Shown here in pieces: positions 28,836 to 51,272 of a DNA stretch of 64,000 nucleotides (the first letter of the stretch is position 1; each line of letters opens with the position of its first letter). Source of the stretch: Gemmatimonadales bacterium (GTDB lineage Bacteria > Gemmatimonadota > Gemmatimonadetes > Gemmatimonadales > GWC2-71-9); the NCBI GenBank assembly GCA_035601435.1, contig DATNOH010000059.1, positions 6,748-70,747 of the forward strand, read 5' to 3'. The position numbers were made by a program, and so were the translations under genes. Under the pieces are notes generated by a model. It was not told where the DNA came from. It did no database searches and saw nothing but the letters and a program-made list of their open reading frames with translations.

Positions 28836-29336
28836 ATGAAGCGAACAGCAGCAAGGCTGACCACGAGCGTCACGCTGGCGTTAGGGCTTGCGCTTGCGAC
28901 CGCCACCGCAGTCGCCGCCCAGAAGCCGGCGCATGGGCAACCATCAGCGCATGCAGCCAACGCAAACCACCCGTCCAACGTTGATCGGGATCGAGCCAAG
29001 GACCTCGATCGATTCCGCGGCGTCGCGAAAAAGCTCGGCACGACCCCGGACGCCCTCGAGACTGAGTACTTGGCGGCACGCCAGACGAACCCGAAGCTCA
29101 CGCACGGCCAGTTCGTCGCCGCCAACATGGTGGCGCACAACTTGAGCGCGAAGAATCCGAACATCACCACTCAGGCGATCCTGGACGGGCTGAAGAGCGG
29201 CAAGAGCATCGGCCAGACGCTCCAGAGCCTGGGGCTGAGTGAAAAGGAAGCCAAGGAAGCGGAGGCGAGCGCCAAGCGCGAGGCGAAGCAGGCCGAGCAC
29301 GAGAAGGATGAGGCCGCGAAGACCGGCGGCCACTAA
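28836..29336 (+). CDS. secreted hypothetical protein with Lys/Glu-rich tail
   Basis: GGAGGA upstream. Signal peptide MKRTAARLTTSVTLALGLALATATAVAAQ. Confidence 0.7.
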   Translation: MKRTAARLTTSVTLALGLALATATAVAAQKPAHGQPSAHAANANHPSNVDRDRAKDLDRFRGVAKKLGTTPDALETEYLAARQTNPKLTHGQFVAANMVAHNLSAKNPNITTQAILDGLKSGKSIGQTLQSLGLSEKEAKEAEASAKREAKQAEHEKDEAAKTGGH

Positions 29337-44470: not shown

Positions 44471-45361
44471 TCAGGGTGCGGGGACGATCGTGATGGCCGT
44501 GACCGGATGGATCTCCCAGGCCGTCGCCCGCCAGTTCTGGGCGCCTCCCGGATGCGTATTCTCCGCTTGCGCTTTGTGCTCGGCGTCGAACATCAGCCAG
44601 CCACGCACCTTCACCCAACGCCCCTCGATGGTCTGCTGGAGCGTCGCCGTCGACCAATCGATGCCTTGGGCGTTCAGCGCGGCACGCCAACGGGGCGTCA
44701 CCTCGACGATGACCCGCCGGATGGAGGCGGTGTCACTCGGGCTCAGCGTGAGCTCGATGTGGCTGTCGCGGTGGACCGGATCCCCCAGCCTGCAGTTGGT
44801 GGTCTCAGTCCGGCCGCCCGGAATCACGCGGAACACGTAGGCGCTGATCTCCGCCGCCTTGGTCTCGTCGAACCGAGCCGCGTCGTCGGTGCTGGGCGCG
44901 AGCATCGCGGCCAACGTGACGGCGCTGTCGGTGTCGGCGTCCCGGGGATCCGCACTGCGGTTCTTGAAACGGTTCAGCGCGCTGACGTTGTGGGGTTTCG
45001 CGTTGCCTGAATCCGGGCAACCGTCGAAATCCCCCGGCGCCACCGACACCGTCGCCGGGGCCGGCACGAAGGTGTGAGGCACCGTGGGCTGGTGTAGCTC
45101 CGTCGGATCGACCAGTCGCACAAAACGCTCCCACACCCAGCCTACGTCCTCGGTCTGCGTACGCACACGCACGTAGCCCGCTTGATGGCCATCGTCGAGC
45201 AGCGTGACTGCGTCGCCGGCCTCGAGCACGGCCAGCTTGTCCGCCCCGCTCGAGGGGCCGCTCCGCAGAGTGGCGTTCCGCGTGAGGATTCCGACTTGCT
45301 GGGTGTTCGCGGCCGGGACCACCAGTACCAGCGCCGCGACGACGAGGGCGACCTGCCGCAC
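44471..45361 (-). CDS. secreted SH3-domain protein
   Basis: GGGGAGG 5 nt upstream of GTG 45359-45361. Signal/TM segment RQVALVVAALVLVVPAANT. Bacterial SH3 pattern ATLRSGPSSGADKLAVLEAGDAVTLL...GYVRVRT...GWV. Confidence 0.7.
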   Translation of the reverse strand: MRQVALVVAALVLVVPAANTQQVGILTRNATLRSGPSSGADKLAVLEAGDAVTLLDDGHQAGYVRVRTQTEDVGWVWERFVRLVDPTELHQPTVPHTFVPAPATVSVAPGDFDGCPDSGNAKPHNVSALNRFKNRSADPRDADTDSAVTLAAMLAPSTDDAARFDETKAAEISAYVFRVIPGGRTETTNCRLGDPVHRDSHIELTLSPSDTASIRRVIVEVTPRWRAALNAQGIDWSTATLQQTIEGRWVKVRGWLMFDAEHKAQAENTHPGGAQNWRATAWEIHPVTAITIVPAP

Positions 45362-45454
45362 GGGGACCTCCCCTCTACAAGAAAACCTTGAACGCAGTGC
45401 CGATAGCGCGATCTTTTCGTGGATGGTAATGCTGGAGCACACGATCGAGGTGAA

Positions 45455-45781
45455 TCACCGGACGATCACTCGATATCCCCCTTCCCCATCGTCCAAGCCC
45501 CACTCCACCACCATCCCCCGCAGCTCCCCCTGCAGCAGGGTCTTCACCAGCCCGCGCAGCACCGGCCCGCTGGTCGAGCCTTTGCCTTTTCCCGTGATGA
45601 TATGGACGACCGCGCCAGCCTTCCGACGTCGCCAACTCTCGAGGAACGCGCGCACCGCGGACCGCGCTTCGACCGCGCCGAACCCGTGTAGATCGAGCTC
45701 GGCATCGGCGCGCGCATCGAGCAATTGGTCGCGCGAGTCGAACGCGGGATGCCCACGTCGTCCACGTCTACCCACGTTCAC
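45455..45781 (-). CDS. Smr-domain protein
   Basis: ELDLHGFGAVEARSAVRAFL...VVHIITGKGKGS...PVLRGLV, the Smr signature (LDLHG, TGKG). Confidence 0.85.
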   Translation of the reverse strand: MNVGRRGRRGHPAFDSRDQLLDARADAELDLHGFGAVEARSAVRAFLESWRRRKAGAVVHIITGKGKGSTSGPVLRGLVKTLLQGELRGMVVEWGLDDGEGGYRVIVR

Positions 45782-47058: not shown

Positions 47059-49110
47059 CTACCTCCGACGCTTCGATCCGAGCAGCGAATGCTTCACGAC
47101 GCTGTCCGGCACGCTGTCCCCATGCCGCAGCGTGAACACCGCCTTGCGCCGCAAGCCGAGATCGAGCTCCACCACCAGGTGACTGTGGTCGCGCGCCACC
47201 CGCCACGCACGCGACGCTTTCGGTACCCCTCCGCCGATGACGGCTCGGGCCGCGGTGATCACGGCCTCCGGCGGCTCGGCGATCGCCGCCAGCTGGGCGC
47301 AGGTGGCGCAGCGGCCGGACTGCTGCTCGAGATCGGCCGTGCACACTTGCCGCCCGCAGTAGCCGCAGGCGGCGCGATGCCGGGCGCACGCGTCTTTGCC
47401 GCACACCGGGCATGGCTCGACCTCATCGGAGGCGAAGAGGGCCATTGCCTCCTCCACACAGCCGGCCCGGTGTCGCGCGCACACCAGGCGCCGCGACGTG
47501 TCGGTGCGGCGCAAATGCTGCGAGCAATGCACCTGTCCGTCCACCACGCACACTGCCCGGTGCGCCGTGCATACCGACCTGCCGCAGCTCGCGCATTCCG
47601 TGACCTCATCCACGCCGACCGGCTCGTTCGTGCCGCCCTCGCAGTACTTGAGGCACGCCGAGCACAGACGCCGGCTTCCCTTCGGCGCATCCGCCCCGCT
47701 CTGCTCCGCGTGCCGGTTGCACACGACACGGCCGCAGCTGCCGCAGGGCGCGAGGCAGGCCGTGCAGGCGGTGTGCCCGTCCTCGGCACACACCCCCTCG
47801 TGCGCGGTGCAGTGCTGCAAGCGGCACGAAGCGCAGACGCGCACGTGCTCGTCACATGCCGGTTGCTCGTCCACGCGACAATGCGCAATGCCGTGTTCCG
47901 CGCAGAAATCCTCGCGGCAAACCGAGCACTGAGACGAGCACGCCTCACAGCCGCAGTGGTCGTGCCGGCAGATCACGAGGCTCGTCGGCGGCCGACCACA
48001 ATGCGGGCATGCCACGATCCAGGCGGCGGCACCGCTCAGCGACCGCTGTGCGTTGAACGCTGCGTGACGCCCATGCGCCGACTCGAGCTGCCACTCGGCA
48101 CGCTGCACCAAAACGGTCGCGTCGATGAGCTGTAAGGGATGCACCACGGCCTTCACCTGGCTGCGCCTGATCTCCTCGGCGCGGCGGCGCTCGGCGAGCG
48201 CCGTGACGGTGCCAATGGCCTCAGGGTCCGACTGCTCCTTCAGGATCGACTCGAAGTAGCGGTCCAGGCGGCCGAGCTCGGTGGCGAGCGCTTGCTCCGC
48301 CGCCGCGCGCCGCGCGGCCACTCGCTCCGCCGACTTTTCCTGGAGATGAATCAAGAGGAGCCGCAGCAGGTCTCCGGGCTCCCGGGCTGGGACGCGCGCG
48401 GCCTTACCTGCTTCCGACGGGTCCGCGGGCTCCGTCCGCCCCGCCTCGAGGTCCCGGAATGCGGCCGCGACATCGTCACTTACTTGGGCGCCGGCCGAAA
48501 GGTCGTAGACGTCGCTTTCGACCACGGCTTCCTCGACTCCCGCTCCAGCCCGCAACACCACGCGCGCGACCAGTCGCCCCACCGGATGCAGGGCCACCCG
48601 CGCCGTGCTCACTTTGCCTGTTCCGTTCCGCACGGGAATCGGCAGGCCGACTTCGCTACCGTCCCCCCGCTCGTCTCGGGAGGGGGGGACAGGGGGTGAC
48701 GACGGCGCGATCAAACCGAGCGACAGGCGCGCCGCGCGCGTCCGAATCGCCTCGATCAACTGCGACACGAACGGACTGCCGAGCACGGCAATCTCGGCGT
48801 CCGGGGCTCGCTCGAGCGCGGCGAGCGAGAACGCCACGCTCAAGCGCTCGCGATCCCTGAAAAACGCCCGCTCGCCCTGGGGCAAGCTCAACCGGGAGTG
48901 ATCGGGGCCGAGTGCGGACTGTTTCACGCCGGCGAGCACGCAGTAGCGCTCCAGCAGCGGCCGGATACGCGCATCGGCGAGCGGATCGGCCTCGGCGACC
49001 TCGGCACGCCCGTTTACGGGCAGCCGCCGAGCCGCGGGCTTACCCGCGCTCTTCGGGCGCTGCTTGCGCTGGGTCTTGCGCTGCGGCTTGCGAGGCGGGC
49101 GGCGTTTCAC
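47059..49110 (-). CDS. 683-aa protein: basic N-terminus, unknown roughly 330-aa domain, then a tandem Cys/His zinc-module array (38 Cys)
   Basis: GTG start in a GTGA overlap with the SNF2 stop. MKRRPPRKPQRKTQRKQRPK. Residues 368-604 hold six C-x2-C-x4-C-x2-H units (e.g. CSVCREDFCAEH, CASCRLQHCTAH, CASCGRSVCTAH, CPVCGKDACARH). Confidence 0.85.
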   Translation of the reverse strand: MKRRPPRKPQRKTQRKQRPKSAGKPAARRLPVNGRAEVAEADPLADARIRPLLERYCVLAGVKQSALGPDHSRLSLPQGERAFFRDRERLSVAFSLAALERAPDAEIAVLGSPFVSQLIEAIRTRAARLSLGLIAPSSPPVPPSRDERGDGSEVGLPIPVRNGTGKVSTARVALHPVGRLVARVVLRAGAGVEEAVVESDVYDLSAGAQVSDDVAAAFRDLEAGRTEPADPSEAGKAARVPAREPGDLLRLLLIHLQEKSAERVAARRAAAEQALATELGRLDRYFESILKEQSDPEAIGTVTALAERRRAEEIRRSQVKAVVHPLQLIDATVLVQRAEWQLESAHGRHAAFNAQRSLSGAAAWIVACPHCGRPPTSLVICRHDHCGCEACSSQCSVCREDFCAEHGIAHCRVDEQPACDEHVRVCASCRLQHCTAHEGVCAEDGHTACTACLAPCGSCGRVVCNRHAEQSGADAPKGSRRLCSACLKYCEGGTNEPVGVDEVTECASCGRSVCTAHRAVCVVDGQVHCSQHLRRTDTSRRLVCARHRAGCVEEAMALFASDEVEPCPVCGKDACARHRAACGYCGRQVCTADLEQQSGRCATCAQLAAIAEPPEAVITAARAVIGGGVPKASRAWRVARDHSHLVVELDLGLRRKAVFTLRHGDSVPDSVVKHSLLGSKRRR

Positions 49111-51272
49111 GCGGCGTCAGCCTGGATGTCCATGAGCACCATGGGCAGGCGGTCCACTTGCGCGACGAGGGTGATGACCCGCCCGGTACTGGTCATGCCG
49201 CTGAGCCGCACCGGTGCTCCGGGTTCAGGCTGCTCGCCCTCCACCCCGATCGGCTCGATCGACTCGAGCGCCTCGAGCACGTCTTTCAGGTGCAAGCCGA
49301 GCCGCAGGCGCTTCGTGTCCCATCCGGGCGCTTTGACGACCTGGCTGGTGCCGAGCCCGAGTCGTAGCCGTCCGGGGACAGACAACGTCTCGAACCGGCG
49401 TTCGAGCCGCATGGCGTTGTCGTCCGGCGCAATGAGAGAGTTGAGCTGTTCCTGTTCCTTGGCTATCGCGCCGCTCGTTTCGATGTCGGCTCCAAGGACT
49501 GCCACCCGGCGCGCGAAGTCTTCCTCGCTGTCGGCCGCGAGCCATTCTTCCGCCAGCCGGCCTTCGAACCTCTGGGCACCGCCGAATTCGCCCAGGATCA
49601 GATCCAGCTCGCCGACTACCAGCTCGAACAGCTTGATCTTCTGGTCGAGCAGCTGGAGGATGTACGACTCGATGGTCCCCGCCGCGGCCAGGTTCACGAT
49701 GTGGACCTCGCGCTTCTGCCCGATGCGGTGCAGCCGGCCGATGCGCTGCTCCACCACCATGGGGTTCCACGGCAGGTCGTAGTTCACCAGCACGTTGCAG
49801 AACTGGAGGTTGCGTCCTTCGCTGCCGGCGCGCGTCGCAATCAGCACGCTGCGCTCGTCATCGTGGAAGGCGCGGATGCGCTTATCCCGCTCGGCGGTAG
49901 AGTGAGCACCCCAATACACGATCGGCTGGCGGCCGAGTTTTTTGACGCGCTCTTCTATCAGCTGAATAGTCGGCCGGTGGTCGCTGAAGATCACCAGCCG
50001 GTCGGGCGTCTCCTTCAGCAGCTTGGTCAGCACGTCCAACTTGGCGTGCGTCTTGATGCCTTCCGCCCGTTTGGCGAGCTGCTTCGCGATGGCGCGGTAC
50101 TGGGGGCTGATGCGGTCGCTCTCGGCCAAGTGCCCGAGCGATTCAGCGAGCGCGCGCGACGAGGAGCACAGCCGTTGCCGCAAGTGGATGAGGGCCAGCT
50201 GCAAAATGCCCTTCTTGGTACGCCGGCCTGGTGCCCCCTCCTCCGGCTCTTCCTGCTCCGCCGGCTTGATGAAGCCTTCTTGATACAGCCGTCTGAGAAA
50301 TTCAGTGGTGCGTTGGTACAGGTCCGCCTCGGCGCGCGTGAGCTTCACTTCCGGGTGGCGCGGCCGGCGGGGCGGCAGATCCAGGTCGTCGACCACGCTC
50401 GAGCGCCGGGTGCGGATCATCACCTCCTGCGTCAGCGCGCGTAGCGCTTCGGGATCACGCGGCTGACGGTGGTCGCCCGACACCAGGTGCTCGGCCTTGA
50501 ACTCCTGCCAGGTGCCGAGCTGTCCGGGCCGGAGCAGCGTGATGAGGTTGTACAGCTCGCGCAGGTCGTTCTGGAGCGGCGTGGCGGTGAGCAGCAGGAT
50601 GAAATCGCGCTCGATTTTCTCGATGAACTGATAGGTCGCGCCGCGGTGACTCTTCACCTTGTGCGCCTCGTCCACGATCACCAGGTCCCAGCGGTGCCGC
50701 AGGATCTCCTCGGCGTGCCGGCGCGTGCGCGCGCGATCGTGCGAGATGATCGCTTTGGTGACGCGTGGCCAGTCGTCGGGATCGGTCGGGGCCTCGAAGC
50801 GCTCGAAGAATTTCTCCTCGAGCTCCCCCTGCCACTGGCCCACCAGCGAGGCAGGCGTGAGGATCAGCGCGCGCCGGGCCAGGCCGCGGATCGCGAGCTC
50901 TTTGTAAATGATGCTCGCCTCGATCGTCTTACCGAGGCCCACCTCGTCGGCCAGGATGGCGCGGCCGCCCATGTCGCGCAGCACCCGCTGGGCCACGTCG
51001 ATCTGGTGGGGCAGCTCCTTGATGGCGTTGGCGTCGAGTGTAATCAGCCGGTCGAACCCGGGAACGAGCGCGATCCGTTCGGCCTCGCGCCGCAGCTCGT
51101 ACCAGGCGCGCTCGGCCGGCGGCTGCTGGAGCGCATCGACGAACAGTTTCAGGGACCGTTCGTCGACCGCCCAGGACTCGTCGGGCAGGGGCTGGGGTAG
51201 CGTCACGCGATCGGCTCGAGAGGTCGGGGGACGCAATATAGGGAATCCGAGACGCGGGAGGGGCCCCCTCAT
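49107..51272 (-). CDS. SNF2/RapA-like family helicase (DEAH ATPase + helicase-C) with about 170-aa C-terminal extension
   Basis: Motifs ILADEVGLGKTIEA (I), LVIVDEAHKVK (II), LLLTATPLQN (III), LIATRAGSEGRNLQ (V), WNPMVVEQRIGRLHRIGQ (VI). Confidence 0.92.
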   Translation of the reverse strand: MRGPLPRLGFPILRPPTSRADRVTLPQPLPDESWAVDERSLKLFVDALQQPPAERAWYELRREAERIALVPGFDRLITLDANAIKELPHQIDVAQRVLRDMGGRAILADEVGLGKTIEASIIYKELAIRGLARRALILTPASLVGQWQGELEEKFFERFEAPTDPDDWPRVTKAIISHDRARTRRHAEEILRHRWDLVIVDEAHKVKSHRGATYQFIEKIERDFILLLTATPLQNDLRELYNLITLLRPGQLGTWQEFKAEHLVSGDHRQPRDPEALRALTQEVMIRTRRSSVVDDLDLPPRRPRHPEVKLTRAEADLYQRTTEFLRRLYQEGFIKPAEQEEPEEGAPGRRTKKGILQLALIHLRQRLCSSSRALAESLGHLAESDRISPQYRAIAKQLAKRAEGIKTHAKLDVLTKLLKETPDRLVIFSDHRPTIQLIEERVKKLGRQPIVYWGAHSTAERDKRIRAFHDDERSVLIATRAGSEGRNLQFCNVLVNYDLPWNPMVVEQRIGRLHRIGQKREVHIVNLAAAGTIESYILQLLDQKIKLFELVVGELDLILGEFGGAQRFEGRLAEEWLAADSEEDFARRVAVLGADIETSGAIAKEQEQLNSLIAPDDNAMRLERRFETLSVPGRLRLGLGTSQVVKAPGWDTKRLRLGLHLKDVLEALESIEPIGVEGEQPEPGAPVRLSGMTSTGRVITLVAQVDRLPMVLMDIQADAA

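Follow-up and report, generated by a model that had tools for sequence, protein, structure and literature searches.

The window analysed here is a stretch of 64,000 nucleotides (nt) from contig DATNOH010000059.1 of a Gemmatimonadales bacterium (assembly GCA_035601435.1). On its minus strand lies an open reading frame (ORF) of 683 amino acids (aa) with a cysteine-rich segment that an initial annotation had described as six tandem zinc-finger-like modules. This ORF, hereafter the partner gene, directly follows a gene for an SNF2-family ATPase, and the two genes overlap by 4 nt. The features of the pair, in window positions, are as follows (pLDDT, predicted local distance difference test).

49107..51272, minus strand: gene for an SNF2-family ATPase of 721 aa with a RapA/BrxHII/DrmD-like core (Pfam, PDB and hhalign), the upstream member of the pair
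49107..49110, minus strand: GTGA overlap, in which the GTG start (49110-49108) of the cysteine-rich ORF lies over the TGA stop (49109-49107) of the SNF2 gene; the sequence reads ...GCC GCG TGA AAC...
47059..49110, minus strand: whole partner ORF, of an unannotated family; GTG start, 683 aa plus stop
48991..49110, minus strand: basic, disordered N-terminal tail (residues 1-40) with 15 Lys/Arg and pLDDT of ~30, kept in alignment A1
48712..48966, minus strand: subdomain 1 of the N-terminal domain (residues 49-133), alpha+beta, pLDDT >90, putative counterpart of the RapA 'Spacer'
48625..48711, minus strand: variable low-complexity linker (residues 134-162), Pro/Ser/Arg/Gly-rich, low pLDDT, length-variable in alignment A1
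48040..48624, minus strand: subdomain 2 of the N-terminal domain (residues 163-357), made of a beta sheet into which two long helices are inserted, predicted to resemble the C-terminal domain (CTD) of RapA
47299..48009, minus strand: Cys/His array (residues 368-604) with ~24 CxxC/CxxH knuckles, 48 conserved ligands and ~12 predicted zinc sites
47062..47298, minus strand: small C-terminal beta domain (residues 605-683) of four strands, pLDDT 77-83, with the basic tail GSKRRR

The cysteine/histidine array

Residues 368-604 contain 38 Cys and 15 His within 237 residues, and the remainder of the protein holds a single Cys. The number and position of the cysteines given by the initial annotation were exact, and all six strings quoted there could be located. 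Against the background of 12 other genes of the window, whose mean Cys content is 0.61%, a count of 38 or more Cys in a segment of this length has a binomial probability of ~2e-41. The motif C-x2-C-x4-C-x2-[HD] starts at residues 395, 426, 456, 506, 567 and 582, at spacings of 31, 30, 50, 61 and 15 residues. Six motifs are therefore present, but the word 'tandem' fits them loosely, as only the last two stand head to tail and the others are separated by degenerate units (C-x2-D-x4-C-x2-[HC]) and linkers. Nor is the six-module description the real periodicity, which is 15 residues with a super-period of 30 residues. Successive knuckles, C-x2-[C/H/D], start at intervals that alternate between 8 and 7 residues, and they derive from an ancestral repeat of 15 residues, C-x2-C-x4-C-x2-[H/C/D]-x3, which occurs as a pure tandem in distant relatives. 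In the window protein this repeat has diverged into 'A' units (CxxC-x4-CxxH), 'B' units (CxxD-x4-Cxx[H/C]) and linkers that end in 'DEV'; the 30-residue super-period is found at residues 395-455 and is followed by blocks of 50-61 residues.

The Cys residues were near-invariant in an alignment of 28 close relatives. In 19 orthologues with 34-63% identity, 37 of the 38 Cys positions were at least 90% conserved, and mean conservation reached 0.98 at Cys positions, compared with 0.79 at His and 0.49 at the remaining positions. The conserved ligand set comprises 37 Cys and 11 His (about a quarter His), and these 48 residues would be enough for ~12 tetrahedral sites. The lack of a signal peptide in the partner protein, its basic N-terminal tail and the co-conserved His point to metal binding inside the cell. 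The array is genuine and under selection, and it most likely binds metal, probably zinc. Regular-expression searches of the partner protein for the ferredoxin-type CX2CX2CX3C, DnaJ CXXCXGXG and retroviral knuckle patterns gave no match.

Searching a 90%-clustered collection at E<=1e-3 yielded 423 homologues of the partner. All those from named sources were 'hypothetical', and the majority came from Gemmatimonadota metagenome bins. A profile scan recovered 328 cluster representatives from a 50%-clustered library, and a profile of distant members matched only 13 proteins, again all 'hypothetical'. Homologues with identities as low as 17-30% retained the Cys/His pattern, the N-terminal domain and the C-terminal domain. 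No curated match to the cysteine-rich protein could be found in Pfam (E<=1), NCBIfam, PADLOC or PDB sequences at permissive thresholds, and no AN1 match was present among 31 relatives either; the array was rightly called unusual for a bacterial protein, in that no curated bacterial family in these collections covers it. We found no paper on the bacterial repeat of the partner or on a pair of SNF2 and cysteine-rich genes. Rfam and tRNA scans gave no match, and a scan for promoters and terminators was uninformative. An identity with YqhG was also considered; the YqhG model of Pfam matched 1 of 31 members (E 0.13), the literature was uninformative, and the candidate was dropped. The yqhG gene of Bacillus adjoins the SNF2 gene yqhH.

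The number of units varied from 4 to >25 across relatives, and distant relatives had 20-25 or more copies and up to 115 Cys. For example, protein P0248 has 85 Cys in 22 units, and a plasmid-encoded protein of Halorhabdus tiamatea has 115 Cys in at least 25 units. An extra block of 61 residues with 7 Cys was present in most relatives, including Gemmatimonadaceae proteins of ~40% identity (columns 630-690 of alignment A1), and is missing from the window lineage, which looks like the loss of one whole block. These differences bear out the earlier suggestion of repeated module duplication and support such an origin for the array. At the DNA level, no tandem repeats could be detected in the array beyond short matches of 70-79%; the duplications should therefore be ancient, and a recent duplication was rejected.

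The other parts of the partner protein were also variable to some extent. The linker at residues 134-162 differed in length among close relatives, some of which carried SPLSRRERGTGGE-type extensions. The C-terminal beta domain was kept as far as the Halorhabdus protein. By contrast, P0282-P0298 (588-589 aa; loci L031, L043, L051 and L052) and the planctomycete proteins P0395 and P0400 all stop right after the penultimate module, without the last module and the beta domain. These natural variants suggest that the C-terminal beta domain is dispensable in some lineages. In addition, a comparison of the predicted model with BFVD returned uncharacterised proteins of giant viruses (Edafosvirus, Harvfovirus and Hyperionvirus) and phage proteins at E values of 6e-7 to 1e-3, including entries named 'LIM domain containing protein' and 'prokaryotic metallothionein'. 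They probably represent poly-Cys arrays of a comparable kind.

The SNF2 gene and the N-terminal domain of its partner

The protein encoded upstream of the partner contains the Pfam domains SNF2-rel_dom (2.6e-34) and Helicase_C (1.3e-20). Its NCBIfam scores were below the cut-offs of DrmD, DpdE and RapA: it reached 203.8 bits on the RapA model (NF003426; cut-off 576) and slightly more on DrmD and DpdE, with 232.9 bits on the DrmD model (cut-off 950). It also matched the BrxH model of PADLOC (7.9e-69), and its best match among PDB sequences was RapA (1.5e-37). The hhalign alignment was confined to residues 80-552 of the SNF2 protein and residues 148-635 of RapA, and for SNF2 residues 545-721 similarity to neither the C-terminus of RapA nor the N-terminal domain of the partner could be found.

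We recovered 64 genome loci and judged the pairing on those with upstream DNA. An SNF2 helicase gene lay directly upstream of the cysteine-rich gene in every Gemmatimonadota locus with upstream DNA. Among the recovered loci, the identity of this helicase to that of the window ranged from ~55% to 88%, the remaining flanking genes varied, and the pair was the sole conserved gene set across 60 loci. The 4-nt overlap was also observed in L072, L073 and Halorhabdus pHTIA. By its sequence, the partner gene is translationally coupled to the SNF2 gene, a feature that had been overlooked in the initial annotation, as had the predicted homology of the N-terminal third of the partner to the C-terminal domains of RapA (see below). 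The following gene orders were found.

L065: hypothetical gene, AAA+, SNF2, partner
L066: AAA+, SNF2, partner
L072 (Planctomycetes): hypothetical gene, AAA+, SNF2, partner
L073: hypothetical gene, AAA+, SNF2, partner
L067: Ser/Thr-kinase::SNF2 fusion, then partner
Halorhabdus pHTIA: SNF2, partner, with the 4-nt overlap; the SNF2 protein is 36% identical to that of the window
Haloferax pSVX82-3: array match preceded at ~2.4 kb by an SNF2 gene; the gene table of the plasmid does not list the partner gene itself

The pairing of SNF2 gene and partner extends beyond Gemmatimonadota to those planctomycete and other bacterial loci that were checked and yielded upstream DNA, and to plasmids of Halobacteria. 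A metagenomic protein of 516 aa (P0143) appeared to be an in-frame SNF2::partner fusion, in which SNF2 extends to about residue 688 and the partner begins at about residue 31; such a fusion would restore the domain order of RapA on a single chain. Another protein, P0181, resembled a frameshift read-through rather than a fusion of this kind.

The N-terminal domain was modelled for residues 40-367 (328 residues) from a diverse alignment of 31 sequences, with a mean pLDDT of 90.7 and a predicted template-modelling score (pTM) of 0.75. In protein numbering, the model has strands at 163-198 and 319-357 and helices at 245-292 and 296-316. Foldseek comparison with 350,542 PDB chains gave four matches at E<=1e-3, all of them E. 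coli RapA (E 2.5e-6 to 4e-5, probability 1.00, ~320 aligned columns), and the next matches had E>=0.02 and probability <=0.2. RapA also ranked first for an earlier, low-confidence model of the full-length partner. When a profile of the domain was compared with 177,635 PDB sequences at E<=10, RapA alone was matched, and the matches were collinear (profile positions 5-35 on RapA 713-743, and 148-246 on RapA 845-950, including the 'ELSRLE' motif); the hhalign match fell on RapA 713-785. The homologue search with this profile was dominated by close Gemmatimonadota relatives. According to the model, residues 40-367 are structurally homologous to RapA; the sequence matches locate the similarity in the Spacer/CTD region that follows the ATPase. 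RapA takes core RNA polymerase off DNA after termination (PMC10334767), and D744 of its Spacer touches the zinc-binding domain of the RNA polymerase beta' subunit (PMC8501970). In a 2026 survey, homologues of the two C-terminal domains of RapA were reported in RapA and BrxHII only, and a nucleotide-sensing role was proposed for those of BrxHII; the predicted fold of the partner domain fits the description given there (PMC12839542).

The pair was widespread in soil Gemmatimonadota and sporadic in Planctomycetes, Actinobacteriota, Myxococcota and haloarchaeal plasmids. In the window, its ten neighbouring genes are all housekeeping genes (MsrA, creatininase, CutC, MBL, Smr and a GGDEF response regulator among them). 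The locus is partly syntenic between genomes of Gemmatimonadales, and the identities of the pair track taxonomy. The Smr-domain protein (108 aa; 45455-45781, minus strand) and a bacterial SH3 protein (44471-45442, minus strand) are encoded ~1.3 kb past the 3' end of the partner gene, beyond the convergent MBL gene, and are not conserved with the pair. Elsewhere in the window, an ORF at 28836-29336 on the plus strand encodes a Lys/Ala/Glu-rich protein of 166 aa with a signal peptide and lies at the sole strong AT-skew outlier (0.29, 28-30 kb).

With regard to other lineages, the AAA+ ATPase that precedes SNF2 in L065, L066, L072 and L073 has ~500 aa and belongs to a classic CDC48/PAN/FtsH-like clade, with weak likeness to IetA; a hypothetical gene accompanies it upstream of SNF2 outside Gemmatimonadota. 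Genes for DUF1257 (Ycf35), DUF2997 and a small radical-SAM activase-like protein were often located downstream of the partner (L065, L066 and L070). A search for AAA+, DUF1257, DUF2997 and radical-SAM genes found none in the window or the 64 loci. The family member on the Halorhabdus tiamatea plasmid pHTIA (NC_021913.1; L076:5708-8995) has 1095 aa, and its N-terminal domain was recognised by hhalign with a probability of 94%. It is flanked by a restriction endonuclease gene downstream and a DEAD/DEAH helicase gene upstream, and this gene block recurs on plasmid pSVX82-3 of Haloferax lucentense (L075).

Proposed mechanism and alternative readings

Taken together, these observations lead us to believe that the flagged stretch is probably the metal-binding arm, with zinc as the most likely metal, of a non-catalytic partner in a two-gene, RapA-like Swi2/Snf2 machine. 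Beyond the pairing, the conservation and the homology described above, we infer the metal, the docking and the target as follows. The N-terminal domain of the partner would dock on the SNF2 ATPase in trans, as the attached Spacer and CTD do in RapA. The array of ~12 zinc ions, the C-terminal beta domain and the basic tails could form a rigid arm whose length varies between lineages. This arm might bind the substrate, which could be DNA, RNA, RNA polymerase or another protein, and such binding would target or gate ATP-driven remodelling. Since the locus in Gemmatimonadales is chromosomal, partly syntenic and surrounded by housekeeping genes, a housekeeping role like that of RapA is favoured there.

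The internal arrangement of the arm was considered using AlphaFold2 models of the partner, which were made without metal. With pLDDT of 68-85 for residues 410-550, the array was predicted to form a meander of 3-residue strands, one every 7-8 residues, each ending at a knuckle. Such a meander would bring knuckle i to the edge that also carries knuckle i+2. In P0248 and P0392, the class of the fourth ligand alternated between H and C/D: the same class recurred at lag 1 with a frequency of 0.37 (0.51 expected) and at lag 2 with 0.70. The unit core CX2CX4CX2H is the centre of the AN1 pattern, CX2-4CX9-12CX1-2CX4CX2HX5HXC (PMC9570247), and of the DNA-binding cross-brace finger of piggyBac, CX2CX11CX2CX4CX2HX4CX2C (PMC5861402), and in both AN1 and the piggyBac cysteine-rich domain (CRD) the CX2C-X4-CX2H segment serves two different zinc sites (PMC9570247, PMC5861402). 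In cross-brace fingers generally, ligand pairs 1 and 3 hold one zinc ion and pairs 2 and 4 another. On the basis of this motif identity, the strand meander and the two-unit alternation of the fourth ligand, the array would probably be a concatenated cross-brace that pairs each knuckle i with knuckle i+2 and binds two zinc ions per 30 residues.

A further-reaching version of this proposal is tentative, and we put it forward as a possibility. The array would be a new kind of zinc module, a rod of continuous, concatenated cross-brace, tuned in length by 15- or 30-residue units (~8 to >28 zinc ions) and carried on free-standing RapA C-terminal domains. With SNF2 it would make up a split RapA-like remodeler, found in Bacteria and Archaea, whose rod serves as a ruler or as a multivalent clamp on nucleic acid. 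If true, this would be the first functional handle on the role of the C-terminal domains of RapA and BrxHII.

It should be noted that several observations weigh against the proposed machine. The structural match to RapA has a low TM-score of 0.3 and a root mean square deviation of ~11 A, and at the sequence level it has E ~1 (profile) or an hhalign probability of 4%, so that the match draws mainly on the 3Di alignment of a predicted model. The last 170 residues of the SNF2 protein are uncharacterised and could hold a Spacer-like domain, in which case the term 'split RapA' might not strictly apply. The alternation was computed from few and non-independent data (6 proteins, 41 pairs). Finally, outside Gemmatimonadota the pair is accompanied by an AAA+ ATPase, DUF1257/DUF2997, a radical-SAM protein or a kinase fusion, and in Halobacteria it resides on megaplasmids next to a restriction endonuclease; by their look, these accessory genes and this setting make a conflict system likelier than a housekeeping one.

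Such a conflict or defence module is the alternative that survives best, and we consider it rather unlikely as a whole. It would consist of a BrxHII/DrmD-type SNF2 motor and a partner whose inactive-nuclease-like domain and zinc array sense foreign nucleic acid or a phage protein, with no role at RNA polymerase. The scores of the SNF2 protein on the DrmD and BrxH models are no lower than its score on RapA, and the only other known carrier of RapA-type C-terminal domains, BrxHII, is the one with the proposed nucleotide sensing (PMC12839542). The sporadic spread across phyla and domains, the megaplasmid copies of haloarchaea beside a restriction endonuclease and a DEAD/DEAH helicase, and the accessory weakly IetA-like AAA+ ATPase, kinase fusion and radical SAM of other lineages also agree with it, and the repeat number is strongly variable, as in arms-race proteins. 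However, the PADLOC models match neither the partner nor the accessory proteins, and no methyltransferase, BrxC, DrmA/B/C or nuclease is present near the window pair. The chromosomal surroundings of the pair in Gemmatimonadales are partly syntenic and its identities follow taxonomy, and among 50,697 phage records not one matched.

A second alternative concerns the array itself and was implied by the initial annotation: independent, sequential mini-fingers, each binding one zinc ion in a 15-residue C3H unit, would form a flexible, beads-on-a-string binder of nucleic acid instead of an interleaved rigid rod. Each 15-residue unit contains exactly four ligands, and there is a precedent in the retroviral knuckle, CX2CX4HX4C, which binds one zinc ion within 14 residues. 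On the other hand, the split of the CX2C-X4-CX2H segment between two zinc sites in AN1 and the piggyBac CRD, the continuous strand meander of the AlphaFold2 models, with knuckles i and i+2 presumably on one edge, and the two-unit super-period of the window protein (A and B units), P0248 and P0392 argue for interleaving, and we regard mini-fingers as unlikely.

Even less probable, in our opinion, is that the array binds iron, as a rubredoxin-type Fe(Cys)4 centre or an Fe-S cluster. Its function would then be to sense redox state or oxygen or to relay electrons, not to serve as a structural zinc scaffold. CxxC pairs can bind iron, as in rubredoxin. Radical-SAM activase-like genes and DUF1257/DUF2997 cluster with the pair in distant relatives, and cyanobacterial DUF1257 and DUF2997 cluster with the ferredoxin gene fed7 (PMC4284462). 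However, these genes are absent from the window and all Gemmatimonadota loci, the ferredoxin-type motif is not found in the partner, the proportion of His among the conserved ligands is typical of Cys3His and Cys2His2 zinc sites, and the motif core equals that of known zinc cross-brace fingers. As for an artefact, be it GC-rich DNA read antisense or with a frameshift, or a disulfide-rich secreted protein, the 68% GC content of the window and the long spurious ORFs that overlap on both strands would allow it, but conservation across homologues (the Cys pattern of the 19 orthologues and the 423 homologues), the confident model of the N-terminal domain, the lack of a signal peptide and the operon with a cytoplasmic ATPase refute it practically beyond doubt.

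Comparison with known systems

RapA (HepA) of E. coli, an RNA-polymerase-recycling Swi2/Snf2 ATPase, is the closest relative of the window's SNF2 core among solved structures, and among the proteins examined here the N-terminal domain of the partner was the sole non-RapA match to the C-terminal region of RapA beyond the ATPase. In contrast to RapA, the predicted Spacer/CTD-type domains reside here on the product of the next gene and the motor on a separate polypeptide; RapA itself has neither a 237-residue zinc array nor a beta domain after its CTD, and the SNF2 protein scores below the RapA model cut-off (204 bits on NF003426 against 576). RapA also has a tandem Tudor-like N-terminal domain and binds RNA polymerase core, and the alignment of the SNF2 protein to RapA begins only at RapA residue 148. 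Having RapA C-terminal domains as a separate protein fused to a poly-zinc array would provide a natural 'split' system for dissecting their function.

The SNF2 protein BrxHII of type 3 BREX belongs to the sole other family with a RapA-type pair of C-terminal alpha+beta domains (PMC12839542). Unlike the window pair, it consists of one chain of ~940 aa that includes a Tudor domain and lacks a zinc array, and it is found with BrxC and a BrxXI/PglX methyltransferase, none of which is among the ten neighbours in the window. The DISARM system also differs, since the SNF2 protein scores below the DrmD cut-off and DrmA, DrmB and DrmC are not among the neighbours in the 60 loci and the window.

With respect to zinc-finger families, the cross-brace likeness that the initial annotation had pointed out is reasonable for the core motif, which is the centre of the AN1 and piggyBac patterns, but the array is not an AN1 or B-box domain by Pfam or regular expression. 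The partner array shares with AN1 (PF01428) the segment CX1-2CX4CX2H and a following His/Cys. AN1 is, however, a single domain with two zinc ions, and the partner array is continuous; there was no AN1 match in Pfam at E<=1, and neither the full pattern nor its C-terminal half occurs in the partner. For the B-box, the spacings of B-box1 and B-box2 gave no match in the partner, nor did Pfam zf-B_box. A classic zinc ribbon binds one zinc ion through two CxxC knuckles that lie on separate beta hairpins, ~10-20 residues apart. No zinc-ribbon match was found for the window protein in Pfam, and one relative matched Zn_ribbon_9 at E 0.35; ribbon-like spacing is confined to the two termini of the array (C368/C371...C381 and C601/C604). 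The piggyBac CRD contains CX2CX4CX2H-X4-CX2C, and four sites of the partner match CX2CX4CX2H-X3-4-CX2[CD]. The full piggyBac motif is not present in the partner; the CRD, a single domain of a eukaryotic transposase, does show that such a unit can bind DNA.

The array is therefore best viewed as a candidate new zinc-finger architecture, with extreme Cys content (up to 115 per chain) and variable repeat number. Zinc-knuckle and cross-brace modules, as well as SNF2 systems of the RapA/BrxHII type, are of kinds already known; new here are the unannotated, putative poly-zinc array, the free-standing RapA C-terminal module and their two-gene architecture across Bacteria and Archaea.

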